Virus record (IMG/VR): IMGVR_UViG_2901984674_000003
Length of the DNA: 64,000 bases
From: a virus
Lineage: Duplodnaviria > Heunggongvirae > Uroviricota > Caudoviricetes
Strand: one strand, 5' to 3'
The first letter of the stretch is position 1; each line of letters opens with the position of its first letter. The position numbers and the translations under genes are program-made. Below the pieces are notes generated by a model. The model was not told the DNA's origin. It did no database searches and was given only the letters and a program-made list of their open reading frames with translations. Positions 2,017 through 44,096 of this stretch are shown here, piece by piece.

Positions 2017-2047
2017 CACCTACTTTAGTAGGTGGTTACTGTTGACC
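2017..2047 (-). ncRNA. 31-nt fragment identical to the 5' stem-loop of the IscB omega-RNA scaffold (GTCAACAGTAACCACCTACTAAAGTAGGTG), in reverse orientation. It doubles as a terminator-like hairpin for the minus-strand gene upstream.
   Basis: The reverse complement of 2017-2047 matches the start of the scaffolds at 22094 and 42370. Confidence 0.5.
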
Positions 2048-2470
2048 AACAGTTTGTTCTGGTGGATTTTGGTTTTGAACTACAGTTTGTTCAGGGTTTC
2101 CACCGCTAACTGTTTCTTCAACTACTTTTGTTCCGCCACCGTTGACATTACGTCTGATAACAGTTTTCTCAGGGTTACCTTGGTTTTGAACTACCGTTTG
2201 TTCTACGGTTTGTTCTGGGTTGCCGCCAACTGTTTGTTGGATTGTCCTTTGTCCACCGTTAGCATTGCGTCTGATAACAGTTTGTTGTGGATTTCCACTA
2301 CCACTGACTGTTTGTTGAATCGTTCTTTGTCCGCCGTTGATATTGCGTCTAATTATAGTTTGTTCAGGGTTACCTTGTCCTTGAACTACGGTTTATTCTA
2401 CGGTTTGTTGTGGATTACCACCACCAACTGTTTGTTGAACTACCTTTGTTCCATCGTTATTAGCAGGGTT
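2040..2470. repeat. Tandem ~70-90-nt coding repeats (about 5 units) at the 3' end of the 1243-aa membrane protein gene; they extend past its stop codon
   Basis: A repeated ACAGTTTGTTC(A/T)GGGTT...ATT(A/G)CGTCT(G/A)ATAAC motif. On the minus strand it encodes ...TVIRRNxNGGQRTIQQTV(S/G)GNPEQTV... repeats. The spurious + ORF 2042..2509 is its antisense. Confidence 0.7.
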
Positions 2471-5400
2471 GTTTTGAACGATAGTCTTGCTACCATTTCC
2501 ACTACCTGATACAGGGCTTGCTTTTCTCATTTGTTGAACTTGTTGAGCTAACTTGTCAGCGTTGTTGAACTCTTTTGGAGCTTTAGTTTCAAAGCTTACC
2601 TTATTCTTCATAACATCACCTAAAGTAGAACCGTCTTTAGTTTCCATCGAGTCAATGCTACCCTTTCTGCGAATCATATTTCTACGTCCGTAATCAGCAG
2701 CGTAATCAGTTAAGCCATTTTCATCAATAGCTAAGGCATTTTCATCAAATACACTGTCTGGTAAGTTGCCACTATTTTGTGCTAAGTCGTCCATAGCAGC
2801 TTGAGGGTCAAAGCCAATTTCATCTGGAGTAATACCGTAGCGATCCATTTGTGCCTTAAGGTGCTTAAAGTCTTCGTTAAGAACTTTGACTTTCTTTTCG
2901 TCTGGGTTGTCAACGAACTCATTAAGCTGGTTAGTAGCTTGTTGTGCAAGTTTTTGTAAGCTTTCTCTAACAGCTTTTGGATTGTTCAACTTCTCAGCAC
3001 GCTTGATAGAACTGTTTGCGTAAGTCTTAGCTTTCTTAGCATGAACTGCCTTAGCACTATCTAAGCTTGCTTGTTGTCTGTCTAAGTCTTGGAGTTGATC
3101 TTTCAACTTAGCCTTATTAGCATCGCTTATATTAGGATCTGCTAAAGCATCGCTTATGATAGCTCTACTGTTGTCAATATCATCTTGTTTAGCATTGATA
3201 CGGTCAAGTTCTTTATTAAGGTCTTGACGATACTTAGTATCAGCCTTGCTTAAGCCTTCAACATTATCGTTGAACTTAATCTTACCAACAGTGTCATCAG
3301 CAACTTGTTGAAGATTTGCTTTTTGATTTTGATGTTCTTTCTTATCTTGTTGAGCTTTTTCAAGTTCTTGCATAAGTTTGCGTTTCTTAGCCATTGCTTT
3401 ATCAACGGTCTTAGCATCGCTGTTAGGGTTAGTAGCAATACTGTCTTGGAACGCAATAGCCTTTTTAATGTTGTTGATACGATCGTCATCTTTACCGATT
3501 TGTTCATCAGCTTCATCAATTTGCTTGTATGCGTCAGTTAAAGCCTTGCCGTTTTCTAGGTTAGATAGATCGTTAGGGTGAATCTTGTTTCTAATCTTGT
3601 TGTCAATTTGTTCACTAGCCTTATCATCAACACCTAACTTACCGTTTTTAGCATTGCGTGATAGCTGAGCTAGTTTTTGAGTTTGACGTTGAGCTAAGCC
3701 TAAACGCTTGATACGTTCTAAGTTATTTTCACCAGCTGTATGAGTGTCATCACCAGTTACACCGTCTGCGTAATTGCCCATCATATGTTGAGCTAACAAT
3801 GCAGCACGGCTTAACTTACCTTGCGCTCCACTGATACGATTACCAGTTAAATCATCAAGTTTTCTGCCAAATCTAGTTTTCTTCATGCCACCGCCTGAAG
3901 CCCAGTTTTCAGCAGCGTTAATCATGTTTCTATTTCTTAATGCGCTTTGTTCACGTTTTTGATTACGTAAATCACTACCTCTACCTACAAGGTTTCTAGC
4001 TCCACCATTAGCTTGATCTTCTAATGATTGACCTGTAGATGAAGCCCATGTCCAAGGTAACATAATAAAGCCTGTTAACTTATCTCTAAGCCCTGATACA
4101 TTCTTGATGTAAGCAACCCAAAATACGATTGCTAAAAAGGCTGTAAAGAATAGTCCAATTCCACCTGCCATTGAACCATTATCAGCAGAAGAACTCAAAC
4201 GACTAAAGATACCACTTAATGAACCTGTAAAGAATTTGATTAACATGTTAGGTACGACTGTAGCCATAATGATTGAGCCTACAAGACCTAAACCATAAAC
4301 GATAACAGCAACCGAGTATTCATAATCACCTTTGATAATAGCCAGCATCCAGGCTCTAAGTGGACGCATGTTCATGTCTAAGATACCCATTGCTAAAAAG
4401 GCTTCAACAGCGGCGATGAATACCAATACTGTAAACAATGGAATAGCGATTAAACCACAAACACTAAAGAATGGTACTCCAACCATGGAAACATCGTAGT
4501 AAACAGCTCTATCATCAGCGAATTTAGCGATGTCTTTAAATGCTCCTGTAGGTGGTGAAGTAATTGAGAATGTACCACCTTGATCGTTCCAGTGTGTGTT
4601 TAAAACATAAAACATGGAAGGAACACTTAAAGCTGTACCGTCTGCTTTATCATTACGTCCATATGCGGCTGAGATTTGTTCTCCTGAAGGTCCTTCTTTA
4701 TAGTAGTCTTCAATTTTAGAACCTTCGTTTTTGTAACCGTAGACGTAACGGTCAGTCCAAATTGATGCAAGTGATTTGACGTTCTTTTCATCGCCGTCAA
4801 TCTTACCTACGTAATCATCTTTGGCTTTACTCATTGGATTTTGTTTCAAGTAGTCATCATCTAACTTAATTCCAGTTGATGAATAAGGTGTATCAAAATC
4901 GTAAATCCATTTACCACCTTTAGAGTCAACTAAAGATGAAATAGAACCATAAGCACCGTCAGTTTTAGATTGATCTCCTTGTAAGTAACTAATATAACTA
5001 TAGCCATCAAATACTTTACTTGATAGATAATCAATCGCTAAGTTAGTGTTAGGGAACAATCCTTTAGACATATCGTTTGCATGAAAAATCGTTTGTGTTA
5101 GCGAATCCGATGCACTTTGACCTGTAACTGGGTTAAACCCTGAGTATGGATTGTACTTAGTCATAACAAAACCTTTAGTTTTACCATTGGTTTTAACATT
5201 AGCGACAGTTAAGTCAAAGTTATACTTTTCTGCCCATGTCTTAACGTCCATTAAATAGCTGGCAAAAGGTGTGTTTGATGCTGAATCTTTTGATGTGTAC
5301 TCAGTAATGTCTGACAGTAATTCAAACCCTGCCATCATTGCAATTGGAACCATTAACAAACCAATGATTCGACCTTTAACCTTAGAGTAATCGGCATTTT

Positions 5401-6124
5401 GCATACCACGTTTGGTAACTGCCCAACAGAATGTACCAATCAAGGTTGTAACTCCAAGCACCATAAAGGTATTTATAAACCATTGAACCGAATCACTCTT
5501 CAAACCTAAAGCCGCTGCCATATCAAGTGCGGTTTTATTTTTGGCTAACGTTCCACCAATTAGGTTAAATACATTCCATTTAGCAAAGAAGTTAATAATT
5601 AAGTACCAAGAGTTAATCATAATATCCATGACTGCTCCTAATACCGTTAAAATTAACCCTACAAAAAATCTGCCTACATACGATAAGAGTAAGGCAAAAC
5701 CATTACCTTGAGTCGAAATATAATTATAGTAGGATAAAGTAGCCATCAGCTCTGAAAAACGCTTGGCTTGTGCTTTGTCCTTAGAGTTATCAATTAGTTC
5801 TTGATAACCAAAAGTACCACTAGCCCCACCAGAACCTAAAATACCACTTTTATCCGTTTGTCCTAAAATGCCTTTCATCATTTTATCTGTAAAGCTTTGT
5901 TTACTTGTTGACGAACGGTTTTTTAATAGGAAGTATTGATAAACTGTAGCGATGTTATCACTATCATCAGCTTTGGTAGTTTGTGACAACATACCAAAGC
6001 TACCAAAGATTGTTAGGAGCAAAACACCTAAAACAACAAATTTACTTTTAAAAAACTTAAGTAAGCTTTGTTTTTTTAGAGAAGGCCTAACACTTTTTAC
6101 ATAATCCAAGAAAATCGCCTCCAT
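2393..6124 (-). CDS. Large polytopic membrane protein (1243 aa) with a long C-terminal coiled-coil, low-complexity tail and tandem repeats. A VirB6/TcpH/TrbL-like conjugation channel component is possible.
   Basis: N-terminal TM segment, at least 8 further predicted TM helices centrally, and a Q/K/D/A-rich coiled-coil C-terminal half. It sits in a block with an FtsK-like ATPase and a lytic enzyme elsewhere in the window. Confidence 0.6.
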   Translation of the reverse strand: MEAIFLDYVKSVRPSLKKQSLLKFFKSKFVVLGVLLLTIFGSFGMLSQTTKADDSDNIATVYQYFLLKNRSSTSKQSFTDKMMKGILGQTDKSGILGSGGASGTFGYQELIDNSKDKAQAKRFSELMATLSYYNYISTQGNGFALLLSYVGRFFVGLILTVLGAVMDIMINSWYLIINFFAKWNVFNLIGGTLAKNKTALDMAAALGLKSDSVQWFINTFMVLGVTTLIGTFCWAVTKRGMQNADYSKVKGRIIGLLMVPIAMMAGFELLSDITEYTSKDSASNTPFASYLMDVKTWAEKYNFDLTVANVKTNGKTKGFVMTKYNPYSGFNPVTGQSASDSLTQTIFHANDMSKGLFPNTNLAIDYLSSKVFDGYSYISYLQGDQSKTDGAYGSISSLVDSKGGKWIYDFDTPYSSTGIKLDDDYLKQNPMSKAKDDYVGKIDGDEKNVKSLASIWTDRYVYGYKNEGSKIEDYYKEGPSGEQISAAYGRNDKADGTALSVPSMFYVLNTHWNDQGGTFSITSPPTGAFKDIAKFADDRAVYYDVSMVGVPFFSVCGLIAIPLFTVLVFIAAVEAFLAMGILDMNMRPLRAWMLAIIKGDYEYSVAVIVYGLGLVGSIIMATVVPNMLIKFFTGSLSGIFSRLSSSADNGSMAGGIGLFFTAFLAIVFWVAYIKNVSGLRDKLTGFIMLPWTWASSTGQSLEDQANGGARNLVGRGSDLRNQKREQSALRNRNMINAAENWASGGGMKKTRFGRKLDDLTGNRISGAQGKLSRAALLAQHMMGNYADGVTGDDTHTAGENNLERIKRLGLAQRQTQKLAQLSRNAKNGKLGVDDKASEQIDNKIRNKIHPNDLSNLENGKALTDAYKQIDEADEQIGKDDDRINNIKKAIAFQDSIATNPNSDAKTVDKAMAKKRKLMQELEKAQQDKKEHQNQKANLQQVADDTVGKIKFNDNVEGLSKADTKYRQDLNKELDRINAKQDDIDNSRAIISDALADPNISDANKAKLKDQLQDLDRQQASLDSAKAVHAKKAKTYANSSIKRAEKLNNPKAVRESLQKLAQQATNQLNEFVDNPDEKKVKVLNEDFKHLKAQMDRYGITPDEIGFDPQAAMDDLAQNSGNLPDSVFDENALAIDENGLTDYAADYGRRNMIRRKGSIDSMETKDGSTLGDVMKNKVSFETKAPKEFNNADKLAQQVQQMRKASPVSGSGNGSKTIVQNNPANNDGTKVVQQTVGGGNPQQTVE

Positions 6125-18195: not shown

Positions 18196-19254
18196 ATGAA
18201 CGAAGATATTTTCTCAAGCTTAATGGTTAACACTGAAGAAGGAACTACTACAGGAGTACCTCTAAGACCACAAGGAATCGAAGTCTTAAACCTTCGCCAC
18301 AACGGTCAAACTGGAGCTTTAACAATCCAGTTTCCAACTTTGCAAAGTGGTGATCGTGGAGAAGTACTTGACGCAAAGTCATACTCACTTATTCCATTGT
18401 TTATCACTAAGATTGCTACAAGCAGCAATGGTATTTCTTCTAATCCTTCATTATCTGGAGTTGGTTACTACGACTTATACAGATATGAAGATACAATGAA
18501 GGGACGTGTAAGCAACAGCTTAGGTATCTTTACAAGCAAGGGCTTAAAAGATCACTTCGCTGAAGAAGGGGCTAAAGTTAAGCATCGTATCTTTGGACTA
18601 TTGATTAAAAAAGACGGTGGTTCAATTAATAAAAACGAAAGCCTAAAAGATCTAAGCACTAGAAACGATGGTTTAGTAGTAGCTTACATCGACTTACTTC
18701 CAAGTAAGTACTTCGCTTTAGCTCAACAATTAAACTGCGATTATTCTAAGGTTGCTAACTTAATTGCTGGTAAAGTTCTTACCGTTGAAGGTGTTACAAA
18801 GACTAACCTAGATGTTTACTACAACAAGACATCTAAGGGTGGGGTGTTCTTACCTAAGTTTAGTTTAGACAACTTACAAGCAACATCTAAACAACGCTTA
18901 GCAAGTAAATCCAAAGACTTAATCACAAATGTTTTAAGTCCTTATATTAACGAAATTAAAGAAAATGACGTATTCTTAAACAGCCTTGTTTCTCACAATT
19001 TTATTCAACCTAAAACTGTTGAAAAATTAGGAAACATCGGTATCGTCAATGATAAAACCTTGAAATCATTCTTAGGCGAACCTGAAGATTGGAATAAGAT
19101 TGTATCTGTTGTAAACGATCAACCAACACTTCAATCTGGAATATCAACTACAGTTGATCCTACACCTAAAACTGAAAGTAATGTAGACGATTATTCTAAG
19201 TTCTTGGATAGCACTACTTCAGATGATTTCTCAAACGATGACTTACCATTCTAG
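18196..19254 (+). CDS. Hypothetical protein (353 aa)
   Basis: ATG at 18196 with a GGAGG RBS at 18183-18187 (the ORF track begins at TTG 18181). No recognisable motifs. Confidence 0.5.
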   Translation: MNEDIFSSLMVNTEEGTTTGVPLRPQGIEVLNLRHNGQTGALTIQFPTLQSGDRGEVLDAKSYSLIPLFITKIATSSNGISSNPSLSGVGYYDLYRYEDTMKGRVSNSLGIFTSKGLKDHFAEEGAKVKHRIFGLLIKKDGGSINKNESLKDLSTRNDGLVVAYIDLLPSKYFALAQQLNCDYSKVANLIAGKVLTVEGVTKTNLDVYYNKTSKGGVFLPKFSLDNLQATSKQRLASKSKDLITNVLSPYINEIKENDVFLNSLVSHNFIQPKTVEKLGNIGIVNDKTLKSFLGEPEDWNKIVSVVNDQPTLQSGISTTVDPTPKTESNVDDYSKFLDSTTSDDFSNDDLPF

Positions 19255-19263
19255 CCATCTTAT

Positions 19264-19332
19264 AGCAGGCATGGTTGCTTTGTTAGGGTTCGATTCTCTA
19301 ACTGCTAATAGAGCTAAGCTAAAGCTTGGCTC
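19264..19332 (+). ncRNA. Degenerate tRNA-like minihelix plus hairpin unit (family 1, copy c)
   Basis: GCAGGcatggttgct...GGGTTCGATTCtc...CTGCT followed by a small hairpin; same architecture as the copies below. Confidence 0.35.
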
Positions 19333-19397
19333 AAGGTTGCAAACATTGTTTGCATCGCTCCTTTCGTTTTATATGTTACTTTACTTACTAACTGGGT

Positions 19398-19467
19398 GTG
19401 GCACGCATGGTTGCTATAATAACGGTTCGATTCCGTTAGTGCCAATAGGGTTGCCATAGACCCTATT
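19398..19467 (+). ncRNA. tRNA-like minihelix (acceptor stem plus T-arm, no D or anticodon arms) followed by a short hairpin (family 1, copy a)
   Basis: TGGCAC gcatggttgctataata ACGG-TTCGATT-CCGT ta GTGCCAA, then ATAGGGttgccatagaCCCTAT. Confidence 0.55.
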
Positions 19468-19495
19468 CTCCTTTATTTTATTGAATTAATTAAAT

Positions 19496-19572
19496 TGGTT
19501 GGCAGAATGGTTGCATCAAGGTTCAAGTCCTTGGCTGCCAATAGGGTTTGCCATAAACCCTTATAGATTGCG
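19496..19572 (+). ncRNA. tRNA-like minihelix plus hairpin (family 1, copy b)
   Basis: TGGCAG aatggttgcat CAAGG-TTCAAGT-CCTTGG CTGCCA, then AGGGTTTgccataAAACCCT. Confidence 0.5.
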
Positions 19573-19769
19573 AATATGATGTTAATGGAGGCGAAATACT
19601 TTTAATAAAAACATAGAACTATATAGAATAAAATAGAAATATAAGCTGTAATTAAATTATAAAAAGAATAAATGTAGGTAATTTAAGCATTGTACATGTG
19701 TTTTCTTATTGCTTATATGATTTACGTAAATATAAAAGTAAATAAAAAATGACAAATCTTTGAAAGGCG

Positions 19770-20933
19770 GTGAAAATGATGATTCGAGTTCAGAAGGTAA
19801 GACTTTATCCAAATCAAACGATGAAAAAGGTGCTTGATGATCTATGTGATTATCGTAGATACTGTTGGAATCAAGGCTTAGCTTTATGGAATGATATGTA
19901 TGATAGTTCTTTGATTTTAGATGATAAAAAGTTAAAACCTAGTGAACACAAGGTTCGTAATGAGTTAGTATCTAATAAAGAAGACTGGCAATATCAATTA
20001 TCAGCTCGTTGTTTGCAATTAGCGATTTCCGATTTAGGTAAAGCTTGGAGTAAGTTTTTTAATAAATCACAAGTTGACTGGGGTAAGCCAAAATTCAAAT
20101 CTAAAAAAGCTCCTAGACAAGGGTTTAAAACTGATAGAGCTAAGATTATCAATGGTAAGCTAAGGCTTGACAAACCACACGGAATCAAAACTTGGTATGA
20201 TATTAGTTTTAAAGGTGCTAAGAGTTTAGATGGTGATTTAAAAGTTATCTCAGTTTACCGTGAAAATGGCAAGTACTGGGCTAGTTTACCTTTTGAAGTT
20301 GAAATAGCCAAGAAAACTAAAACTGGTAAGAAAACAGCAGTTGATATTAATGTCGGTCATTTTAACTATACCGAAGGTAAAGTTAATACACTACCTAATC
20401 ATTTAAGAAAACTCTATAAACGTATCAAACATTACCAACGTCAGTTAGCTAAAAAACGTGTCGTTAATGGAAGAAAAGCTACTCAATCGCATAATTATGT
20501 TAAAACGAGAGCCAAGTTACAACGTGATTATCGTAAAGTAACTAATATCCAACATGATATTGTGCATAAATTTACAACTAAATTAGCAAGTGATTACGAT
20601 AAGATAGCCATTGAAAATTTAGCAGTGAAGAAAATGCAGATGACGCACGTTGCATCTAAAGGCTTACAAAGATCATTATTTGGCTATTTTAGACAAATAT
20701 TAGCTTATAAAGCCGATTGGTATGGTAAGAAAATAGTCTTAGCAAGTCAATTTTATCCAAGCACACAAAGATGTTCCAAATGTGGTTATATTAAGACTGG
20801 CGAAGATAAAATTGGTCTTGATGGAAACCAAAAACATAAGACTAAACATAATGAATATATTTGTTATGAATGTGGTTCGGTTATGGATAGAGATGAAAAT
20901 GCAGTAAAAAATCTTCTGGCTTTAATAGCTTAG
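19770..20933 (+). CDS. tnpB: TnpB (IS605 OrfB family), copy 2
   Basis: 387-aa ORF with RuvC-I VDINVGH, RuvC-II IAIENL, a CSKCG...CYECG zinc finger and RuvC-III DRDENAVKNL. A hairpin-rich 3' flank at 20934-21060 is the likely right end or omega-RNA. Confidence 0.85.
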   Translation: MKMMIRVQKVRLYPNQTMKKVLDDLCDYRRYCWNQGLALWNDMYDSSLILDDKKLKPSEHKVRNELVSNKEDWQYQLSARCLQLAISDLGKAWSKFFNKSQVDWGKPKFKSKKAPRQGFKTDRAKIINGKLRLDKPHGIKTWYDISFKGAKSLDGDLKVISVYRENGKYWASLPFEVEIAKKTKTGKKTAVDINVGHFNYTEGKVNTLPNHLRKLYKRIKHYQRQLAKKRVVNGRKATQSHNYVKTRAKLQRDYRKVTNIQHDIVHKFTTKLASDYDKIAIENLAVKKMQMTHVASKGLQRSLFGYFRQILAYKADWYGKKIVLASQFYPSTQRCSKCGYIKTGEDKIGLDGNQKHKTKHNEYICYECGSVMDRDENAVKNLLALIA

Positions 20934-21445
20934 AAATATTATGGGGTGGGCTTACACCCTCAAGCTATCAGAGTTAGTCAATGTCATTACCCTCTAGTTA
21001 GGATATGGGAATACTAATGTTGACGGTAGTAAATAAAATTTAGGAAGGGAAAAATGTATTCTTTCTAATAATATAGAAATAATAGATATTTTTCTATATT
21101 ATTCTAATTTTATATAGCAGTAAGAGATGCGAATATTAATAATTTTCTAGTTTTTTTGAATAAATTATATCAAATGATACTACTTAAAAATACACTTCAC
21201 TCAACCTAATGGAGTTAACCAGTCAACAAGCTTTTAGAATTAATTCTAAAAGCTCTTGTGGACAACTTTACAACTCATTTGGCAGTCGTGCTTTGTTTCA
21301 AAAATCATTTGTAAGCTTCTTAAATTAGAAATTTAAGTTTAGCTTAGCTGGAACTAATCCGATTCCATCTGTACCATCAGTAAAAGCATTCGGTACTACT
21401 TTTTTAATATTTGTAAGATTCTTTATATTTCATTCGACTTACAAG

Positions 21446-21493
21446 TTGGCACGCATGGTTGCTGTAATAACGGTTCAATTCCGTTAGTGCTAA
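21446..21493 (+). ncRNA. tRNA-like minihelix (family 1, copy d), fused directly to scaffold S1
   Basis: TTGGCAC gcatggttgctgtaata ACGG-TTCAATT-CCGT ta GTGCTAA, followed by 'ttg' and then GAGGACGCTTG... Confidence 0.55.
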
Positions 21494-21496
21494 TTG

Positions 21497-21636
21497 GAGG
21501 ACGCTTGTTCTTGACAGCTCGGTAAATATTTCTAGCCTCTACGGTGTAACGTTGGTTAATCTAACGGTAAAACATCGCAAGCATGGAAAGTTCCCAAGAA
21601 GCTTGTGTCACTATTAAATACAGTTAGAAAACAACG
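21497..21636 (+). ncRNA. Conserved ~140-nt RNA scaffold S1 (tracrRNA/omega-RNA-like), start GAGGACGCTTGTTCTTGACAGCTCGG and internal GTTCCCAAGAAGCTT box
   Basis: One of six paralogous copies (21497, 23281, 33711, 34380, 36074, 37098). Each lies between a tRNA-like element and a repeat array. Confidence 0.6.
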
Positions 21637-21861
21637 GTTATGAACCTAGGTTAAATGACATAGGTGTAAGACCAGCAGTGTAAAAGCTTAAAAGCTGTTG
21701 TTGTTTTGAACTTAGGTTGAATGATGTAGGTTGAAGACTATATAAAATCTAGCATAGAAACTCTTGCATTTTGAACCTAGTTAAAATGACGTAAGTATAA
21801 GACAGAATACTGTATAGAGAGTTATGTTCTGAACTTAGCTAAAACAAACATAAGATAAGAC
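21637..21861 (+). CRISPR. CRISPR-like array A1: 4 repeats (36, 36, 35 and 33 nt, increasingly degenerate distally) with 30, 30 and 25-nt spacers
   Basis: The repeats are GTTATGAACCTAGGTTAAATGACATAGGTGTAAGAC, GTTTTGAACTTAGGTTGAATGATGTAGGTTGAAGAC, TTTTGAACCTAGTTAAAATGACGTAAGTATAAGAC and CTGAACTTAGCTAAAACAAACATAAGATAAGAC. The spacers are unique. Confidence 0.7.
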
Positions 21862-21982
21862 ATATCACAGGTTTATCTCACAAGCATTTTGGAATAAAAG
21901 CTAGTTCGATTCTAGCTATGCTTATTACCATTACTAAGCTTCGTAATGGTAACACACTTGCACTAAAACTATTACTTATAGG

Positions 21983-22046
21983 TTGGTAGAGTGGTTGTAT
22001 CGAGGTTCGATTCCTTGGCTACCAATAGGGTTGTCATAGACCCTAA
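21983..22046 (+). ncRNA. tRNA-like minihelix plus hairpin (family 1, copy e)
   Basis: TTGGTAG agtggttgtat CGAGG-TTCGATT-CCTTGG CTACCAA, then TAGGGttgtcatagaCCCTA. Confidence 0.5.
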
Positions 22047-22074
22047 AACTATTTCCTCTTATTGTAGGCTGCAA

Positions 22075-22335
22075 TGCCTTATTATATAAACTCCGTCAAC
22101 AGTAACCACCTACTAAAGTAGGTAACTTGTAGTAATACAAGTTTTGTTGTCTAGACTAAGTTCTTAGAGAACTACGTTATTTCAGTGATCATACCTAGAA
22201 ATGGTACCCTAGTTTCTAGCTCTATGAAGGCTCTGTAAACAAGCATAAGGTTAATGTGCTAGTCAACCTTGTAATAAGCTGAAATAACATTGTCGAAGGG
22301 TAACCACATGTATTTATTAACTCTGATAAATACGT
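22075..22335 (+). ncRNA. Orphan IscB omega-RNA-like scaffold (copy B) with no adjacent iscB ORF
   Basis: About 70% identical over about 240 nt to the region immediately upstream of iscB at 42370-42633. Shared blocks include CGTCAACAG(T)AACCACC(T)ACTAAAGTAGGT..CTTGTAG.AATACAAGTT and CGAAGGGTA(A)CCAC. The 5' flank (guide position) differs. Confidence 0.6.
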
Positions 22336-22378
22336 GATAAGGTCATTAATACCTTATATACTCCTTAAAATATTTGGT

Positions 22379-22443
22379 TGGCACGCATGGTTGCTATAAT
22401 AGTGGTTCGATCCCACTTGTGCTAATAGGGTGTAATAGCCCTA
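22379..22443 (+). ncRNA. tRNA-like minihelix plus hairpin (family 1, copy f)
   Basis: TTGGCAC gcatggttgctataat AGTGG-TTCGATC-CCACT t GTGCTAA, then TAGGGtgtaataGCCCTA. Confidence 0.5.
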
Positions 22444-22483
22444 ATGGTTGTATATTACTCCTTTTTAAAAAGTTACTTATAGG

Positions 22484-22549
22484 CTGGCACACATGGTTGT
22501 CTTGCAACAGTTCGATTCTGTTGGTGCCAATTGTAGCATTAAGCTACAA
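22484..22549 (+). ncRNA. tRNA-like minihelix (family 1, copy g)
   Basis: CTGGCAC acatggttgtcttgc AACAG-TTCGATT-CTGTT g GTGCCAA. Confidence 0.45.
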
Positions 22550-22627
22550 ACTCAAAACTTTTTCTCTTTAGAGTAATAAAAAAATTACTCTAACTAACAT
22601 AACTCCTTGATTTAATATATGATTTGG

Positions 22628-22696
22628 TTGGCACGTACGGTTACTTTATGGTAGTTCGACTCTACCAGTGCTAATTGCCTTTGGTAAAACGAAGGC
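22628..22696 (+). ncRNA. tRNA-like minihelix plus hairpin (family 1, copy h)
   Basis: TTGGCAC gtacggttactttatg GTAG-TTCGACT-CTAC ca GTGCTAA, then GCCTTTggtaaaacGAAGGC. Confidence 0.5.
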
Positions 22697-22761
22697 TAAA
22701 ATAACCCTTCTTATGGGGCAACAAAAATATCTTTCCTTTATAAGGTTTTTCTCTCAAATAG

Positions 22762-22831
22762 GTTGGCACGTACGGTTGCTTCTATAGTGGTTCGACTCCG
22801 CTAGTGCCAATAGGTTAGGGTTAATCCTAAC
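22762..22831 (+). ncRNA. tRNA-like minihelix plus hairpin (family 1, copy i)
   Basis: TTGGCAC gtacggttgcttctat AGTGG-TTCGACT-CCGCT a GTGCCAA, then GGTTAGGgttaatCCTAACC. Confidence 0.5.
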
Positions 22832-22993
22832 CGCCTACCTTATGTTATTTTTGGTGCTGGACTTTGCCTCCTGTACAAGGCTATGAAAAAAGTCAAAACG
22901 AACTGTTAAACAAACTAAGGCTGTACACCTGACAAGAGTGGGTGTTTGCAAGACAGTTCCTTGTATTTCGTTAGTTGGCCTTTGGAAATACAG

Positions 22994-23059
22994 TTGGTAA
23001 CACGGTTGTGACGTCAAGGTTCGACTCCTTGTTTACCAATAGGGCTAAGATAAGCCCTA
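22994..23059 (+). ncRNA. tRNA-like minihelix plus hairpin (family 1, copy j)
   Basis: TTGGTAA cacggttgtgacgt CAAGG-TTCGACT-CCTTG t TTACCAA, then TAGGGCTaagataAGCCCTA. Confidence 0.5.
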
Positions 23060-23084
23060 AATAAATCATAACATTAATTCAAGG

Positions 23085-23156
23085 TTGGCACGCATGGTTG
23101 CTATAATAACGGTTCGATTCCGTTAGTGCCAATAGCCTTTGCCAACGCAAGGGCTA
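23085..23156 (+). ncRNA. tRNA-like minihelix plus hairpin (family 1, copy k)
   Basis: TTGGCAC gcatggttgctataata ACGG-TTCGATT-CCGT ta GTGCCAA, then TAGCCTTTGccaacGCAAGGGCTA. Confidence 0.5.
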
Positions 23157-23215
23157 ACCAACTAATCGGAATGTATATGTACAACACTTTTTCCTCCCTT
23201 AATAAAAAGTGTGTG

Positions 23216-23277
23216 TAGCGATGTAGCTTAACGGTAGAGCAAGGCATGGGATACAGGTTCGACTCCTGTCATCGCTA
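23216..23277 (+). ncRNA. tRNA-like element (family 2, copy l): acceptor stem, D-arm and T-arm present, but the anticodon arm is collapsed to 13 nt. Fused to scaffold S2.
   Basis: TAGCGAT g TAGCTTAACGGTAGAGC aaggcatgggata CAGG-TTCGACT-CCTG tc ATCGCTA, followed by 'ttg' and then AAGGACGCTTG. Confidence 0.55.
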
Positions 23278-23280
23278 TTG

Positions 23281-23441
23281 AAGGACGCTTGTTCTTGACA
23301 GCTTGGTAAACATCTCTAACCTCTGCATAATCGCAACTTGCATTAGTTAGTTAGCGATTATGTAAGTCTAAAGAGTTCCCAAGAAGCTTATGTCAAAGTT
23401 AAATATAGGTTTTGAGCCTAGTTGAAAGCATAAGCTAAGAC
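23281..23441 (+). ncRNA. Scaffold S2 plus a single degenerate repeat (GGTTTTGAGCCTAGTTGAAAGCATAAGCTAAGAC). The guide position runs into the RBS and start of ORF 23462.
   Basis: Paralogous to S1, S3, S5 and S6. The lone repeat ends at 23441 and is followed by TAAATGATTATATCAAGGAGGTGGTT, which is the 5'UTR and GTG start of the next gene. Confidence 0.5.
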
Positions 23442-23461
23442 TAAATGATTATATCAAGGAG

Positions 23462-24217
23462 GTGGTTAAAATCATTACTCGAGATTATGCAATCAAAAAA
23501 TTCAACGCAATTTTAAACAATGTTAATAACGGTGGCACTGACGTATATGAAGTAACCAGTGCCAATATTTTTAGCTTATCTAAGGCTTTAAAATACATCA
23601 ATCAAGTAGATCCTAACACGGTTTTGTGGCAGCATACACCAACGCATCACGTAGCTTGTGTGTACGTAAAACAAAACACAGGCTTTGCTTATAACCGAGA
23701 TTATTTAGACTTGATTGCTAACGGTATCGACAGTGAAGAAAAGTTTAGAGAAGCTTGGCGACAAAGGAATGGCAAAAATACGAGGGGGCATTTTCCTGCA
23801 ATTGAAAAGAGTGCTACTAAAAGCCAACGAGTTAAGCATGAATCTTACATTGTTGCTGACTTAAATTCAGAAAATCCTAACTCTAAGATTCCAGGTAGCC
23901 TAAGTCCTAATCACGTTGATAGAACACACTTAATTTCATCGCAGATTACAGGCATTGAAAGACACAAGGGTTTACTTATTGATTTTGACAGTTGGCTAAA
24001 CCGTACACCAATGAACACGTTTGAAACTTACATTTTACGTATGTCAAACAAGCAAGACATTATTTGGTTAGCGTTTGTTTGGAGAGAAAACGATGGTTTA
24101 CATTGGAAGTACACAATGCTAGATAACCAAGGTACGATTCTACGTGAACGAGAATGGATAGACGATCGTTGGACTTACATTTGGAAATACGACCCTTATC
24201 AAGAAAATATCGACTAG
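23462..24217 (+). CDS. Hypothetical protein, possibly a non-specific nuclease-like fold (weak)
   Basis: 251 aa with a GTG start after an AAGGAGG RBS. VDRTHLISSQ...LN loosely resembles the DRGH motif of EndA/NucA-type nucleases. Low-confidence assignment. Confidence 0.4.
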   Translation: MVKIITRDYAIKKFNAILNNVNNGGTDVYEVTSANIFSLSKALKYINQVDPNTVLWQHTPTHHVACVYVKQNTGFAYNRDYLDLIANGIDSEEKFREAWRQRNGKNTRGHFPAIEKSATKSQRVKHESYIVADLNSENPNSKIPGSLSPNHVDRTHLISSQITGIERHKGLLIDFDSWLNRTPMNTFETYILRMSNKQDIIWLAFVWRENDGLHWKYTMLDNQGTILREREWIDDRWTYIWKYDPYQENID

Positions 24218-24232
24218 AAAGAAGGTTTACAT

Positions 24233-24505
24233 ATGAGTTCAAATGAAATCAAAAAAATTGCTGATGAAACTACTAAATTACTCCAAGACGCAGGCTACGA
24301 AGAAACTTTAATGGTACTTAGAAAAGGCGAAAGAACTATGATGGAAGGTCAACTAAGTCCTGAAACAACTATTAGGGTTATCACATCTTTGTTTGAACCA
24401 TTACACGAAGAAGTAAAAATCTTAATCGCAAGTTTGTTACTTGATAATTTAGGCATTCATGACTTGTTTGATGAAGATGATGAAGAAGACGATGACGAAT
24501 ACTAG
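24233..24505 (+). CDS. Small protein with a poly-acidic C-terminus (DEDDEEDDDEY), possibly a DNA-mimic or immunity-like protein
   Basis: 90-aa ORF, 15 nt after the preceding gene. Confidence 0.4.
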   Translation: MSSNEIKKIADETTKLLQDAGYEETLMVLRKGERTMMEGQLSPETTIRVITSLFEPLHEEVKILIASLLLDNLGIHDLFDEDDEEDDDEY

Positions 24506-24520
24506 AAAGGAAGTTTTAAT

Positions 24521-25588
24521 ATGACTAAAACTAACATTGAAGGAACATTTACAAAAGTATCAGATACATTAATTGAAGATGAAAAATACAAGGACTTAAG
24601 CGGTCTATCAATCTTGTTATATTCACTTTATGCAAGACGTTTAACTTGCTCTATTAATAGCGCTAAAAATGGAAATAAAGATTTTGTTGATGAAAAAGGT
24701 AATCCATACATTATCTTCACTAATGAAGAAGCAGCTGAAAAAGTACGTACAACTAGCAGAACTGTATCTAAGTTACGTAAAGAGTTAGTTAACCATGGCT
24801 TAATCAGTGTAAAAAGACTTGGTTTAAAGCATTACAAAATCTATGTGCATGAACCACAAGCAAGCGTTCAAAAGAAGACTCAAAGTACTGATAAGAGTAG
24901 TAGTAACAACGATATTAACAACGTGAATGAAGACCTGGTTGAAATTATCGACCAGTACGTGAGTGAAGATAATTCATTTACAGGCATGAAAAATAATCCT
25001 ATAAGTGAGAAAGACTCTAAGAGAGATATATATAATAATACAAATGAAACATATGAATCAAATCCTAACTTACAAAAAATTAGCGTTCAACCTTCTCCTT
25101 CTTCTATCGACTCAAAGGTAGATTATAACGTTAATAAAACAGCTATGTTAGCTTTAAGAAGTAGAGTAGCTAACGTTTTAACTCCTGCTGTATGGGGTAG
25201 AGTTGAAGTTTTAGCTCAAGGTGATTATAAACAAGCTAAGTTTATTGTTAACACTATCTTTAAAGCTAAAAGCCAAGTAACTAATAAATTATTGTCTAGT
25301 TCAAACTGGTTATACAATCCTGCAAGTCAAGAAGCTACAAGATTTGAAACTAACAACTTGTTAATCAAGGGTTTAGAATCTGCATTAATTAGAATGACTG
25401 AAATTATTTACAAAGGTCAAGAAAAGGTTAGAAACACTGAAAGCTTTATGTATTCTTACATTCGTAACAACATCGCTAATAGCATTAAGACATACTTGTC
25501 TGACAACTTTGAATTAGCTCAAGATGAACTGATTGAAGTCAATAGCTTAACTAGTTTTGGAACTAAACCACAATACGCTGTGGCTTAG
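24521..25588 (+). CDS. repA: Plasmid replication initiator, RepA_N family
   Basis: The N-terminus LSILLYSLYARRL...DEKGNPYIIFTNEEAAEKV...SRTVSKLRKELVNHGLISVKR fits the RepA_N winged-helix consensus of Firmicutes plasmids. Confidence 0.55.
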   Translation: MTKTNIEGTFTKVSDTLIEDEKYKDLSGLSILLYSLYARRLTCSINSAKNGNKDFVDEKGNPYIIFTNEEAAEKVRTTSRTVSKLRKELVNHGLISVKRLGLKHYKIYVHEPQASVQKKTQSTDKSSSNNDINNVNEDLVEIIDQYVSEDNSFTGMKNNPISEKDSKRDIYNNTNETYESNPNLQKISVQPSPSSIDSKVDYNVNKTAMLALRSRVANVLTPAVWGRVEVLAQGDYKQAKFIVNTIFKAKSQVTNKLLSSSNWLYNPASQEATRFETNNLLIKGLESALIRMTEIIYKGQEKVRNTESFMYSYIRNNIANSIKTYLSDNFELAQDELIEVNSLTSFGTKPQYAVA

Positions 25589-26774: not shown

Positions 26775-27257
26775 ATGCACAATTTAAGTTTGAAATCGAT
26801 GCCTAATGCTGCTCTGGATTTTGAATCTGGTAATGGTGATATTAAGCAAAGAAAACTAGCTATTATTCAGGCAAAAAAACGTAGTTTGTACTTAAAAAAG
26901 ATATTAATAGGTTTTTTTGAAACAATTCATATAAAAGTTAAATCAATCAAAGTTAACGGAAGTTTATGCCAATATACATTTGTAATTCCACATTTAGGGG
27001 GATTAATTGATTTTAAAAAGTTAAATATAGTTATTTCAGACAATTTTCCTAAAAGTACAGTTCGTATATGGATGAAAAACGGAAAATTAATTATAGAATT
27101 AAGCAATATGATTAATATTCCTGTATTATTTAAAGATTTAGTTTTAATGAATGAAGAGTATGACGTAGTGAATACGGTGATAGGGCAAGATGGTTCGGAA
27201 ATAGTCGTAAGATTATCCAATTTGTTAGACCTGTTACTACAAATACACAAAATTTAA
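26775..27257 (+). CDS. Hypothetical protein whose 3' ~70 nt overlaps the iscB remnant in another frame (deletion/fusion junction)
   Basis: 160-aa ORF. Its last ~25 codons are encoded by DNA homologous to iscB codons 42-66, read out of frame. Confidence 0.4.
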   Translation: MHNLSLKSMPNAALDFESGNGDIKQRKLAIIQAKKRSLYLKKILIGFFETIHIKVKSIKVNGSLCQYTFVIPHLGGLIDFKKLNIVISDNFPKSTVRIWMKNGKLIIELSNMINIPVLFKDLVLMNEEYDVVNTVIGQDGSEIVVRLSNLLDLLLQIHKI

Positions 27258-28432
27258 CTTTAGGAGTAGATGCTGGTTTTCACTTAGGATTATCTGTTGT
27301 TGGAAACCAACGTGAATATTATGCGTCAGAAAGCTTAAGAAAGTCAGAAAAAGATCGAATTACTAGTCGAAGAGAATTAAGACGTACTCGAAGAGGACAT
27401 TTAAGATACCGTCAAGCTAGATTTGATAATCGTAGACGTAAAGACGGCTGGTTAGCTCCTAGTATTCAACACAGATTAGATTTTACAATTAAAGAAATCA
27501 AACGTTTATATACGTTTTTACCCATTACTAATTTAGTCGTTGAAGTTACACCATTTGATAATCAAAAACTAGCTAATCCAAATATTAAAGCCTGGCAGTA
27601 TCAAAAAGGTAAGATGTATGGTTTTAAGACGATTAAGGATTATCTACTAGCTAGAGATAACTATCGTGATGCTTTAGATGGTAAACAATACCCAGCTAGT
27701 CAGTTAAGAGTCCATCACTTAGTTCAAAGAAAAGATGGTGGTTCTAATCAGCCAGATAACTTAGTTTTATTGTCAGATATTAACCACAATCAAGCTAATC
27801 ACAATAATGGTGTCTTAGCTAAATTAAGACAAAATCGGCAAAAGACGATTGATTATCGTGGAGCTTATTTTATGAGCATTTTAGCAACAAGATTAAGCAA
27901 TTATTTTGATGAATATACGACAACTCAAGGTTATCTAACCGCTAACCTAAGACAAAAGTATAAGATTGAAAAATCTCACTTAAATGACGCTTTTGTGATT
28001 GCTGGTGGAACTGATACAACCCTTAGAACAAACAATGTTTATTCGAGACAAAAGTTAAGGAATAATAATCGTATATTACAGTTGTTTTATGACGCTAAGT
28101 ATATTGATTGTCGCGATGGTAAACAAAAAGCTGGTAAAGAGTTAAGTTCAGGGAGAACTAGACGATCCCAAGAGCTTAATTATGACAATTTAAGACAATT
28201 TAGAAAAGAAAAAGTTAAAAAGGGTCGTGTTTCGATTAGAAGAGGTCATTATCAATTAAGACCACATGATGTTGTGTTAAATACCAGAACTAACAGGATT
28301 GAAAGAGTCAAAGGAGTTAATAGTAGAGGAAAGGGCATTGTTTTCCAAAGCGGTAAATATGGCACAGTTAAAAATGTAATTAGCTTATATCATGTAAATG
28401 GAATGTTGGAAAAGAAAATGGAAAATATTTAG
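27190..28432 (+). pseudogene. iscB: 5'-truncated IscB paralogue. It lacks the N-terminal PLMP domain, has no start codon and has no upstream omega-RNA.
   Basis: About 85% nucleotide identity to iscB 42740-43992 from the ARWFGNSRK codons onward. It retains RuvC-I (GVDAGFHLGLSVVG), the HNH-like segment (VHHLVQRKDGGSNQPDNLVLLSDINHN) and RuvC-III (HLNDAFVIAGG). The ORF track only calls the part from the internal Met (27614). Confidence 0.7.
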
Positions 28433-28526
28433 TTTGTTTAGGCAAACTAGAGCTTATATTCCACGACTAAAATCGTAGGTTTTACGTCCGTTTGTAATAA
28501 AAATTAATCAAAAGGAGTGGTGATTA

Positions 28527-34314: not shown

Positions 34315-34376
34315 AACGATGTAGCTCAATGGTAGAGCAAAGCGAGGCGACGTAGGTTCGATTCCTACCATCGTTA
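34315..34376 (+). ncRNA. tRNA-like element (family 2, copy n; D-arm and T-arm present, anticodon arm reduced to 13 nt), fused to scaffold S4
   Basis: AACGATG TAGCTCAATGGTAGAGC aaagcgaggcgac GTAGG-TTCGATT-CCTAC CATCGTT a, followed by 'ttg' and then GAGGGTGCTTG. Confidence 0.55.
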
Positions 34377-34544: not shown

Positions 34545-36026
34545 TTGGTGTTTAAAAAGGAGTTGGAAAAAATGGAAGAAAAAGTTTTAGAAAGTCGTAG
34601 AATTAGAATTTATCCTACTAAGGATCAACAAGCATATTTAACGTTTAATATGTTTGCTAATATCAAGATGTGGAACGCATTACTAGCTGAAGTTTATAAG
34701 CCAGTTAGTGAGTTAGATGAAGTTCAAGCTTTACCTAGAAACAAACAAAGTAAAGAAGTTTATAAACGCATTGAAAGAATGTCATGGGAAGAGCAACGTG
34801 ATTTGTTCAAAGGTTTACGTGGACTTTCGACTAAGGCTATTTACGATGCTGATGAAACTGTGTTTGAAAGTGGTTGGACTTTAAAAGACGCTGATACTAG
34901 CATGTATAGTTACACTTTACGTACTTTAAAAACAGCGATGAGCAACCATTTGAAAAACCCTAGACACTTTGGTATTCCTAGGTTTAAGACAACAATGGAC
35001 GTTGAAAATCAAGGTAGTTATACCTCAGGCGCTCATGTTTGTGAAATCAGTGAAGACGGCAAGTACCTTAGAGTAGGTAAATTGAAAAGATTTAAGTTAG
35101 GCTTAATTGAGATGGCTAATCACTATCCTAGTGACGGACGTTTGTATAAAGTAACAATTAAGCATGAATCCAGCGATACTTGGTATGTATCATTTGTGTT
35201 TGAACAAGCTGAGCATACAGTAAAACGTCCTAGAACTGGTTTAGCAGCTGGTATTGACTTAAACGTAACAGGTAACAGTCATATTGTTTTACAAGATGGT
35301 ACTAGATACCAATTGCCATATGACAAAATCAGAAAATTAGAACAAAAGATTGAAAAAGAAAACGTAAAACGTAGTCGCAAGTATGAACAATGGAAAAAAG
35401 AGGTTGCAATCATTGAAGAAGACAATAAAAAATCCTTAATTCCAAAGCATGTTCCTACTTTAGCCGAACGTAGCAATTACCAAAAGAACAAAAAGAAGAT
35501 TGCTAAGTTACATTTACGCATTAAAAACTTGAAAAAAGACTATATTAAAAAAACATGTTCAAAGCTTGCTAATGAATATGATGTAATCGTTATGGAAGAC
35601 CTAGCTGTTTCAGATATGGAAAAGAATAAATACCGTGCTAGAGCAATCACTAGATCAAACTTCCGTGAAATTAGAGATACGCTTACTTATATGATGGACT
35701 GGGCTGATAAAAAGATTGTGTTTATTGATCGTTGGTCACCAACTTCAAAGCGTTGCCATACTTGTGGTTACATTAAGCACAACCTTAAATTAAGCGACCG
35801 TAAGTGGACTTGCCCTATCTGTAATTCTCACCATGATCAAGACATAAACGCAGCTAAAAACATCTTAGATGAAGGCTTAGACTTGCTAGACAAAATGAAT
35901 GATTCTTGCAAGAAATGTGGGCATGAGCGTACGGTTATTACAACAGACGAAAAGTGGACATGTACAAAGTGTGGAGCTAAAAATAAAACCACACCTAAAG
36001 AAGAAAATAGTAGCGATGTAGCCTAA
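34545..36026 (+). CDS. TnpB/Cas12-like RNA-guided nuclease (493 aa) flanked on both sides by scaffold plus CRISPR-like array modules. Candidate type V-U-like effector.
   Basis: The TnpB-type N-terminus (RIRIYPTKDQQAYL...), RuvC-I (AAGIDLNVTG), RuvC-II (VIVMEDLAV), zinc finger CHTCG...CPICN and RuvC-III (HDQDINAAKNI), plus an extra C-terminal CKKCG...CTKCG finger. Its stop codon lies inside tRNA-like element o. Confidence 0.85.
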   Translation: MVFKKELEKMEEKVLESRRIRIYPTKDQQAYLTFNMFANIKMWNALLAEVYKPVSELDEVQALPRNKQSKEVYKRIERMSWEEQRDLFKGLRGLSTKAIYDADETVFESGWTLKDADTSMYSYTLRTLKTAMSNHLKNPRHFGIPRFKTTMDVENQGSYTSGAHVCEISEDGKYLRVGKLKRFKLGLIEMANHYPSDGRLYKVTIKHESSDTWYVSFVFEQAEHTVKRPRTGLAAGIDLNVTGNSHIVLQDGTRYQLPYDKIRKLEQKIEKENVKRSRKYEQWKKEVAIIEEDNKKSLIPKHVPTLAERSNYQKNKKKIAKLHLRIKNLKKDYIKKTCSKLANEYDVIVMEDLAVSDMEKNKYRARAITRSNFREIRDTLTYMMDWADKKIVFIDRWSPTSKRCHTCGYIKHNLKLSDRKWTCPICNSHHDQDINAAKNILDEGLDLLDKMNDSCKKCGHERTVITTDEKWTCTKCGAKNKTTPKEENSSDVA

Positions 36027-36070
36027 CGGTAAGGCAAGGTAACAGATGCAGGTTCGACTCCTACCATCGT
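36009..36070 (+). ncRNA. tRNA-like element (family 2, copy o) overlapping the last 6 codons and stop of tnpB-3; fused to scaffold S5
   Basis: TAGCGATG TAGCCTAACGGTAAGGC aaggtaacagat GCAGG-TTCGACT-CCTAC CATCGTTA, followed by 'tag' and then GAGGACGCTTG. Confidence 0.55.
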
Positions 36071-36073
36071 TAT

Positions 36074-36479: not shown

Positions 36480-37094
36480 AACGTTCAAATAACGCTTCAA
36501 GCATAACCGATTGCATAAGGGCTTTAATCAAGTCTTATCGGACATCTGCCTGTAATTCGTAGTAGGTATAGTCTGAGTGATAGCTTAGACAAGCCGAGAG
36601 ATGATTGGTAACAATTATCAAACCTAGTAAAAGCTAGGACGTTTGGTAGGTGTGTGGAAATGTGTGACGTTAGTGCTTTGCTAACCGTTGGCACTGGATA
36701 AAATAGACGCTCACGGTGTGAGAATAACCCATTGGCAGCTTAGTGTGGTAGCTAAGTGATGTGATGGGAATAACCAAAGACAGTGTTTGCCTTGACGTTT
36801 AGGAAACTAAGCTATAACAACGGAAACAAGAACGAGTAGGGTAATGGCATCGAGATTACAGTAATTTCGCTACTGGACTTGAAATCCACATGCGACGATT
36901 AAGACAAATAAAATAATTCTGAATGATTGCCTGAAAGTTGGTACTTATCATAGTAGCCACGTTATATAAAGCAAAAGGAAGTAGCAAGGTAGCTCCTTGT
37001 TGCTCAGACCTTTTGAAACGTTCGCATAATAAGCGGTAGCACATTGTAAGCAGAGTGAAAGCTCGTGCTTGAAGTGTTGTTTGAGCGTTAAATA
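36480..37094 (+). other. About 600-nt ORF-free, relatively GC/purine-rich region between array A5 and scaffold S6. Candidate structured ncRNA or decayed gene.
   Basis: There is no ORF of 60 aa or more on the + strand, and composition differs markedly from the AT-rich intergenic DNA nearby. It occupies the slot where the other units carry a tRNA-like element. Confidence 0.3.
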
Positions 37095-42349: not shown

Positions 42350-42633
42350 TGCTAGAGCGTTATGGTACGCGTCAACAGAACCACCGACTAAAGTAGGTGG
42401 CTTGTAGAAATACAAGTTGGTTGATTAGCCTAAGTTTTAAGTAACTACGTTAGGGTTGAATAGATAGGTACTTTGGAATACCACCCTAGTTCCAAACACT
42501 ACGGTTGATTATTAAACAGAGTTGAGTTCAGACTCAGTGTAATTAACATTAAACCAACCTATAACATTGGCGAAGGGTACACACGTACCAACTCTATGTT
42601 AGGTGCGAATTACGATTGAAAGGAGCTGGCATA
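42350..42633 (+). ncRNA. IscB omega-RNA (copy A): a guide-position flank plus about 250-nt scaffold immediately upstream of iscB
   Basis: The scaffold begins CGTCAACAGAACCACCGACTAAAGTAGGTGG. It is homologous to the orphan copy at 22094 and to the fragment at 2017-2047. IscB omega-RNAs are encoded 5' of the ORF. Confidence 0.6.
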
Positions 42634-43992: not shown

Positions 43993-44096
43993 TTTATTTA
44001 GGTAAACTAGGACTTATATCACACGACTAAAGTCGTAGGTTTTACGTCCATTTGTAATAAACAAGCTGGTCTAATGCAGGTTGAAAGGAAGGTCAA

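Follow-up and report, generated by a model that had tools for sequence, protein, structure and literature searches.

A stand-alone IscB omega-RNA on a Ligilactobacillus salivarius megaplasmid-type replicon, read as the truncated near end of an insertion sequence from a second IscB lineage

The window analyzed here, a stretch of 64,000 nucleotides, carries at 22095 (+ strand) a complete IscB omega-RNA gene that is not followed by iscB. Judged by its sequence, this orphan is the 5′ 264 nt of an IscB insertion sequence (ISC group, IS200/IS605), of which only the omega-RNA gene is present, and it belongs to a lineage, herein called type B, other than that of the intact IscB encoded in the same window (type A). 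Taken as a whole, the likely explanation is an immobile, truncated type-B near end, whose probable partner would be a type-B IscB acting in trans and whose target would be its own empty site, or which would be inert in a cell without type-B IscB. It is probably not a guide RNA for the window's own intact IscB.

The RNA family HEARO (Rfam RF02033) corresponds to the omega-RNA of IscB (Meers et al. preprint; review PMC13565253). The window contains two full-length HEARO matches above the gathering score of 83 bits, namely 22095–22307 (129.3 bits, model positions 1–211) and 42371–42584 (132.6 bits). Both regions that a sequence-only reading of this DNA had taken for omega-RNAs, including the one upstream of iscB, are thus recognized as such. 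That reading had also stated that no iscB follows the first copy, and tblastn finds no IscB-like coding sequence 3′ of 22095; the sole matches in the window lie at 42634–43989 and 27182–28429. The orphan resembles HEARO RNAs in that sequence and secondary structure match over the full length and in that it is bounded 5′ by the GTCA terminus of the transposon (Kapitonov et al. 2016, PMC4810608), which in the terms of Meers et al. is the right end as defined by TnpA. The homology of all copies begins with GTCAACAG and the sequences upstream are unrelated, in agreement with a guide taken from flanking DNA. It differs in that the HNH/IscB ORF from which the family takes its name is missing 3′ of it, whereas its relatives of 92–96% identity have iscB 24–25 nt downstream.

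These relatives define the lineage. Type A denotes the lineage of the resident IscB and its omega-RNA, and type B that of the omega-RNAs closest to the orphan. The iscB-linked type-B copies, in which the omega-RNA lies directly upstream of iscB, come from pLMP1046 (L003), the ZLp4b plasmid (L004), the ZSA5 plasmid (L111), and the metagenome contigs L081, L093, and L103; the pattern scan of genome contigs gave many chance matches, which were filtered by nhmmer. Type-B IscB, with WP_148305473 and WP_284650703 as reference sequences, consists of 433–434 aa and is 35% identical to the resident type-A protein. It contains the four zinc-binding cysteines of the HNH domain, which type A does not (CQACKK...CSKCH versus DALDGK...SDVNH), although the catalytic HH..N of type A is kept. 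Between the two omega-RNAs of the window, identity is about 73% (151/206 aligned positions), or 77% in a MAFFT alignment that includes the flanks. The sequence-only reading had described a paralogue at about 70% identity, but with its 92–96% identity to type-B omega-RNAs, the orphan did not arise by duplication and divergence of the resident copy. The two RNA types differ by ~27%, stem lengths included, and strains or plasmids that carry both have one separate omega-RNA per type. Type-B elements end in a hairpin of the form CCCCTNACTAAAGTARGGR, followed later by ...CGCCRAATTRTCA. Beyond this far end, six type-B elements or relics read TTGAA, TTGAA, TTAAA, TTAAT, TTAAT, and TTAAA, summarized as TTRAW, and the corresponding type-A flank is ATAAA at 4/4 sites. 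According to Meers et al. (preprint), IscB cleaves the donor joint of the element that encodes it, which makes these flanks probable target-adjacent motifs. The site of the orphan is flanked by TTAAA, which fits the type-B pattern; a type-B element would therefore insert at this site.

The orphan region can be divided into five parts, all on the + strand. The guide-position flank, TGCCTTATTATATAAACTCC (22075–22094), is native sequence of the surrounding tRNA-like array, continuous with relatives that do not carry the orphan; it is unpaired in the minimum free energy fold, and its own copy is the only match in the window at ≤3 mismatches. As previously noted, it differs from the flank of the resident omega-RNA: homology starts with (C)GTCAACAG in both, and the preceding 18–20 nt are dissimilar. 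The type-B scaffold follows at 22095–22307 (HEARO 1–211), and next to it a 3′ extension typical of type-B omega-RNAs at 22308–22358, with two hairpins at about 22305–22336 and 22337–22357 that are both present in the fold. All type-B copies are conserved up to ACCTTAT(A) and then continue with AAAAAGATGAAAGGAG...ATG; the extension of the orphan stops where the ribosome-binding site of iscB would start. Its type-B homology ends at 22358, followed by TACTCC and then by native sequence. The right junction of the inserted block is formed by TATATACTCC (22355–22364), which, read from the sequence, is an imperfect direct repeat of TATAAACTCC (22085–22094). The last part is the TTAAA flank (22365–22369), the putative type-B target-adjacent motif. 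No far end of type B, neither hairpin nor terminus, is found at or near 22358–22400. The element does lie where it had been placed earlier, at 22094 to 22327 or 22335, but its conservation extends to 22358, and the inserted block ends at 22364.

The whole block of 270–271 nt (22094/5–22364) is a presence/absence polymorphism. It is missing from the syntenic array in two relatives, ZSA5 and L121, which read ...TATATAAACTC|TTAAAATATTGG... at this position. Their empty alleles count as one event because these two are each other's closest relatives, and parsimony favors neither an insertion in the window nor a deletion in the relatives.

By sequence comparison, the DNA of the window is of the L. 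salivarius megaplasmid type. The best relative is plasmid unnamed2 of ZSA5 (NZ_CP123973.1, 166.6 kb), with 96–99.8% identity over the compared parts. The second, L121, is the 180-kb IMG/VR contig IMGVR_UViG_2529292852_000001, which was found by a guide-pattern scan of viral contigs as the one real homologue of the locus, the other matches being mostly due to chance. The gene products of the window include RepA_N, ParA, an Alp7A/ParM-like protein, DnaB, FtsK, a sortase, and an integrase. Three TnpB genes are located at 429–1655, 19770–20933, and 34545–36026, and no Y1 transposase is found among the ORFs tested. A search of a phage collection with 19000–25000 gave no match. IMG/VR enters L121, which is closely related to the replicon, as a virus, and the record for ZSA5 has a linear topology flag. 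Several features hint at a phage-plasmid–like replicon: these two entries, a Phg_2220_C domain, DnaB, RusA (in ZSA5), a ROOL RNA, and tRNA-like units. At the far side of the window, tandem repeats of 429 nt (143 codons) extend over about 59800–64000 (+), and no ORF longer than 91 aa is listed between ~57.5 and 64 kb. The repeats are consistent with a gene for a large repeat (surface) protein that would extend past the window end, which would explain the missing listed ORFs.

The array that hosts the orphan consists of ~10 tRNA-like mini-units, for example GTTGGCACGCATGGTTGCTATAATAACGGTTCGATTCCGTTAGTGCCAAT, at 19288–23300 (+), is densest at 21440–23300, and sits just upstream of the RepA_N gene. 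The orphan omega-RNA has the same orientation as the RNA genes around it. An Rfam tRNA match at 23217–23277 illustrates the architecture of a unit: acceptor, D, and T arms are present, and the 17-nt anticodon arm is reduced to 6 nt. ARAGORN makes no tRNA calls, and the units are visible only by Rfam and repeat searches. Each inspected unit is followed 3′ by a small hairpin. Further units flank the third TnpB gene (34315–34376 and 36012–36072), just 5′ of a full-length ROOL RNA at 36483–37083 (+; Rfam, 241 bits), which hence lies 3′ of both that gene and a tRNA-like unit. An Rfam "Transposase-1" RNA at 20965–21023 (+; 74.7 bits) starts 32 nt past the stop of the TnpB gene 19770–20933, a position that suggests part of a TnpB guide RNA or a right end. 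Insertions of the IS200/IS605 type are concentrated in the array, which is a hotspot for them: a TnpB element lies upstream, the orphan within, and in ZSA5 another TnpB element at ~22468.

How such a remnant might work can be outlined from its parts. Lacking the other transposon end, it could not be excised or moved by the TnpA transposase. If transcription of the array passes through the orphan, the RNA would fold normally and present 16–20 nt of native upstream sequence as guide. A type-B IscB acting in trans would be the natural partner. As target, only the empty form of the orphan's own site can be predicted, ...TTATTATATAAACTCC followed by TTAAA, and cleavage there would favor conversion or loss of plasmid copies without the insert. 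Without a type-B IscB, the orphan would be inert and, evidently, a young remnant. A cognate partner may be found outside the window: the ZSA5 plasmid encodes a type-B iscB with its own omega-RNA at 32.3–33.9 kb, roughly 36 kb beyond the segment that is syntenic with the window, and type-B IscB is common in L. salivarius replicons and also occurs in chromosomal contexts (metagenome contigs). Precedents for use in trans exist. Hirano 2022 (PMC9581776), citing Altae-Tran 2021, reports standalone omega-RNAs that function with IscB, in line with the earlier statement that omega-RNAs can act in trans, and PATE-like mini-elements with omega-RNAs depend on nucleases provided in trans (Meers et al. preprint). 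A literature search on cross-compatibility between IscB proteins and omega-RNAs returned nothing useful. Some features count against function of the orphan. The leader contributed by the preceding tRNA-like unit would be about 49–67 nt long as opposed to a guide of 16–20 nt, and the two known empty alleles (ZSA5 and L121) differ from the orphan guide by 1-nt indels and are, thus, imperfect targets.

A strong rival explanation is that the orphan is an inert relic, a young truncated transposon piece that yields no stable RNA or meets no compatible IscB and has no effect. We give this reading a chance slightly short of even. It is favored by the loss of iscB and of the far end and by the promoter scan, which detects no sigma-70–like site on the + strand immediately upstream. 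Other IscB debris in the window (27182–28501 and 1866–2046) suggests plain decay, and about 5/37 HEARO matches in species-representative genomes are likewise without iscB, as ordinary decay predicts. The structure of the RNA itself speaks to both sides. The Rfam consensus structure was transferred by script to the orphan and six other type-B copies; type-A pair counts from this mapping, which is not structure-aware there, were disregarded. Of 65 scorable model pairs, 59 are canonical in the orphan, compared with 56–60 in the iscB-linked type-B copies, and each of its noncanonical pairs is also noncanonical in iscB-linked copies, so that none is broken in the orphan alone. The disruption of conserved stems, which the sequence-only reading had named as an observation that would speak against it, is hence not seen. 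The HEARO score of the orphan (129.3 bits) exceeds those of all five scored iscB-linked type-B copies (115.9–123.7 bits). Folding of the orphan RNA together with its flank gives a z-score of −4.0, and the guide region stays unpaired. RNAalifold on the MAFFT alignment recovers only part of the HEARO structure, with compensatory changes in 18/33 of the RNAalifold pairs. Structural equality with iscB-linked copies argues against a dead relic, as do the co-orientation with the RNA-gene array and the abundance of type-B IscB in L. salivarius replicons. However, just three differences are private to the orphan among the type-B copies, none of them pair-breaking, and its intactness may, therefore, stem from youth and is no evidence of selection. 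From the sequence, it is evidently a young copy.

A further possibility, put forward by the sequence-only reading, is that the resident type-A IscB takes up the orphan RNA and is thereby directed to a second target. The resident element is complete. Its omega-RNA (42371–42633, +; guide-position flank 42351–42370) lies directly upstream of a 452-aa iscB (42634–43992, +), for which Pfam reports RRXRR alone and which matches IscB entries of the PDB. Aligned to the solved IscB structures, it keeps the RuvC residues D, E, and H..D and the HNH residues HH..N. The far end with the hairpin ACGACTAAAGTCGT (43993–44061, +) closes with ...TTTGTA and is followed by ATAAA; homology with three other type-A sites stops here, and all four read TTTGTAATAAA. 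Among the matches listed, a 41-kb draft contig also encodes the resident IscB, and L121 has a full type-A element with omega-RNA ~3.5 kb downstream of the array site. The resident had been called the single intact IscB of the window, and one intact copy is indeed what is found, but a second type-A element, truncated at its 5′ side, is present at 27182–28501 (+), as identified by tblastn, blastn, translation, and a far-end match. Its iscB (27182–28432) covers codons 37–452 in a frame of 417 codons that is 90% identical to the resident and free of internal stops, without start codon or omega-RNA, and the far end follows at 28433–28501. Loading of the resident protein would be helped by its intact catalytic residues, by the fit of both RNAs to one covariance model at similar scores, by the junction sequences ACTACGTTA, ACCCTAGTT, and ATAACATTGKCGAAGGGTA common to both, by the precedent for trans use mentioned above, and by a flank that is only one position apart (TTAAA matches ATAAA at 4/5 positions). 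Yet the cognate protein lineage of the orphan is only 35% identical to the resident, the RNA types diverge in sequence and stem lengths, the site of the orphan follows the type-B pattern and not the ATAAA of all four type-A sites, and each type retains its own omega-RNA where the two coexist. We regard reprogramming of the resident IscB as unlikely.

The truncated type-B near end still has to be reconciled with its odd right junction. The left edge of the inserted block is an exact transposon terminus and the right neighbor is TTAAA, but the right junction is not a transposon end: the omega-RNA end overlaps TATATACTCC by TATA/TTATA, and the block is bracketed by TATAAACTCC and TATATACTCC. The IS200/IS605-type ISC family makes no target duplications (Kapitonov et al. 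2016, PMC4810608). The sequence fits a recombination or template switch in which the microhomology CCTTAT(T)ATA joined a filled to an empty allele and which could have occurred, for example, during repair of an empty site cut by IscB. Such a filled-by-empty exchange predicts the observed junction except for two missing A's. Alternatively, the ancestor of the relatives could have lost the block through a deletion from one repeat to the other. A more specific model would see in the junction the scar of RNA-guided homing that went only part of the way: a plasmid from which the element had been excised would be cut by IscB at the donor joint and repaired from a filled copy, with synthesis switching back to the empty allele after ~264 nt. 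This model is based on the omega-RNA end being joined, via the microhomology TTATA, to an imperfect repeat of the protospacer's final 10 nt, beyond which TTAAA lies. We hold it to be improbable. If true, the orphan would be an allele reduced to its guide RNA yet still directed at empty sites, and the activity of IscB itself would generate standalone omega-RNAs.

A mobile, protein-less mini-transposon of the PATE type, moved by TnpA in trans with its own guide RNA aboard, would account for the presence/absence polymorphism, the exact near-end boundary, and the TTAAA flank, and PATEs with omega-RNAs have been described (Meers et al. 2023 preprint), but it is very improbable here, as the orphan has neither far-end hairpin nor far terminus, is flanked by a 5–10-nt direct repeat of a kind that the family does not make, and is accompanied by no Y1 transposase among the ORFs tested. 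The orphan shares with PATEs that it is a protein-less derivative of the IS200/IS605 family that retains a guide RNA. However, PATEs have both subterminal hairpin ends and the orphan only the near one, and it should, hence, not be mobilizable. A PATE-like element does exist at another site in ZSA5 (locus L002, 3001 to about 3326), where omega-RNA and far-end hairpin are kept and iscB is precisely deleted. This iscB-less type-B element (region 2930–3440) has a 70-nt unit on either side, in diverged copies. The downstream copy contains a promoter-like site called by the scan (TTGCTA-17-TATAAT) and, by eye, a tiny hairpin RNA with a T-run that the scan did not call; at the position equivalent to the insertion, it reads ...ACAGAAGG|TTGAA, another TTRAW site. 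Inspection by eye also suggested a promoter 5′ of the ZSA5 orphan, for which the scan made no call. The two orphans were also considered as sister copies of one propagating iscB-less lineage. This was rejected: the window orphan is 95.7% identical to the iscB-linked metagenome copy L081 and 94.7% to L002, the two iscB-less copies share no exclusive substitutions, and their breakpoints differ.

A third trace of IscB elements lies near the start of the window. On the − strand, 2018–2046 is identical over 29 nt to 22095–22123 of the orphan, with 0 chance matches expected, and 2017–2046 is identical (30/30) to the type-B near terminus of pLMP1046 and ZLp4b. It had been described as a 31-nt, reverse-oriented piece of the scaffold directly after the gene of a 1243-aa membrane protein. 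A minus-strand copy of 29–30 nt is present, but it lies 347 nt past the stop of the listed ORF. The frame of this protein (2036–6124, −) is interrupted by one in-frame stop (2393–2395) and continues for 118 codons of the same QQTV/GNPEQTV repeats; thus extended, it ends at a TAA within the terminus of the IscB element (GGT CAA CAG TAA). Exact matches and the sequence itself delineate a composite relic at 1866–2046 (−) of 176 nt plus flank: the near terminus with the first hairpin (30 nt, 2046–2017), an inner repeat of 130 nt (2017–1888) with the terminal inverted repeats GAGGCTGGAAAAAAA...TTTTTCCCCAGCCTC, the terminal 17 nt of the type-B far end, TTTCCGCCAAATTGTCA (1887–1871), and the flank TTAAA (1870–1866). 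By these matches, it is the relic of a third insertion, of type B, with both termini but one hairpin only, and the earlier suggestion of such a remnant agrees with this. The other suggestion, reuse of the hairpin as a terminator, does not hold. Past the hairpin, the strand of the 1243-aa gene shows the A-run GGCTGGAAAAAAA in place of a U-run, so that the hairpin is not a canonical terminator; the terminator scan flags it on the + strand only, with the weak tail TTACTGTTGA. The fragment is, moreover, the near terminus of a relic whose far terminus is also kept. The inner repeat of ~130 nt has terminal inverted repeats of 15 nt and an internal two-way terminator-like hairpin and occurs alone at L112 2501–2633 and in at least 20 other L. 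salivarius plasmids. Its features resemble those of an independent small element, mobile or repeated, that is here lodged between the termini of the type-B relic.

Standalone omega-RNAs and omega-RNA–bearing mini-elements are already in the literature, and the orphan belongs to this described kind of leftover; the practical value of the finding is, hence, modest. Like the standalone IscB omega-RNAs of OMEGA systems (Altae-Tran 2021, as cited by Hirano 2022, PMC9581776), the orphan combines a full scaffold with its own sequence at the 5′ guide position, no adjacent iscB, and a cognate lineage elsewhere in related replicons. Unlike those, it is known from sequence alone, and its origin is traceable to a 3′-truncated insertion with a noncanonical right junction. 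It is, hence, a clearly traceable natural case of an omega-RNA that lost its nuclease gene and may show how guide-only copies arise. Two IscB/omega-RNA lineages with differing flank motifs coexist on L. salivarius megaplasmids, which calls for telling IscB lineages apart before a coresident IscB is taken as the partner of an omega-RNA. If active with a type-B IscB, the orphan would cut insert-free related plasmids near the replication gene and would, thus, constitute a simple guide-only selfish allele.
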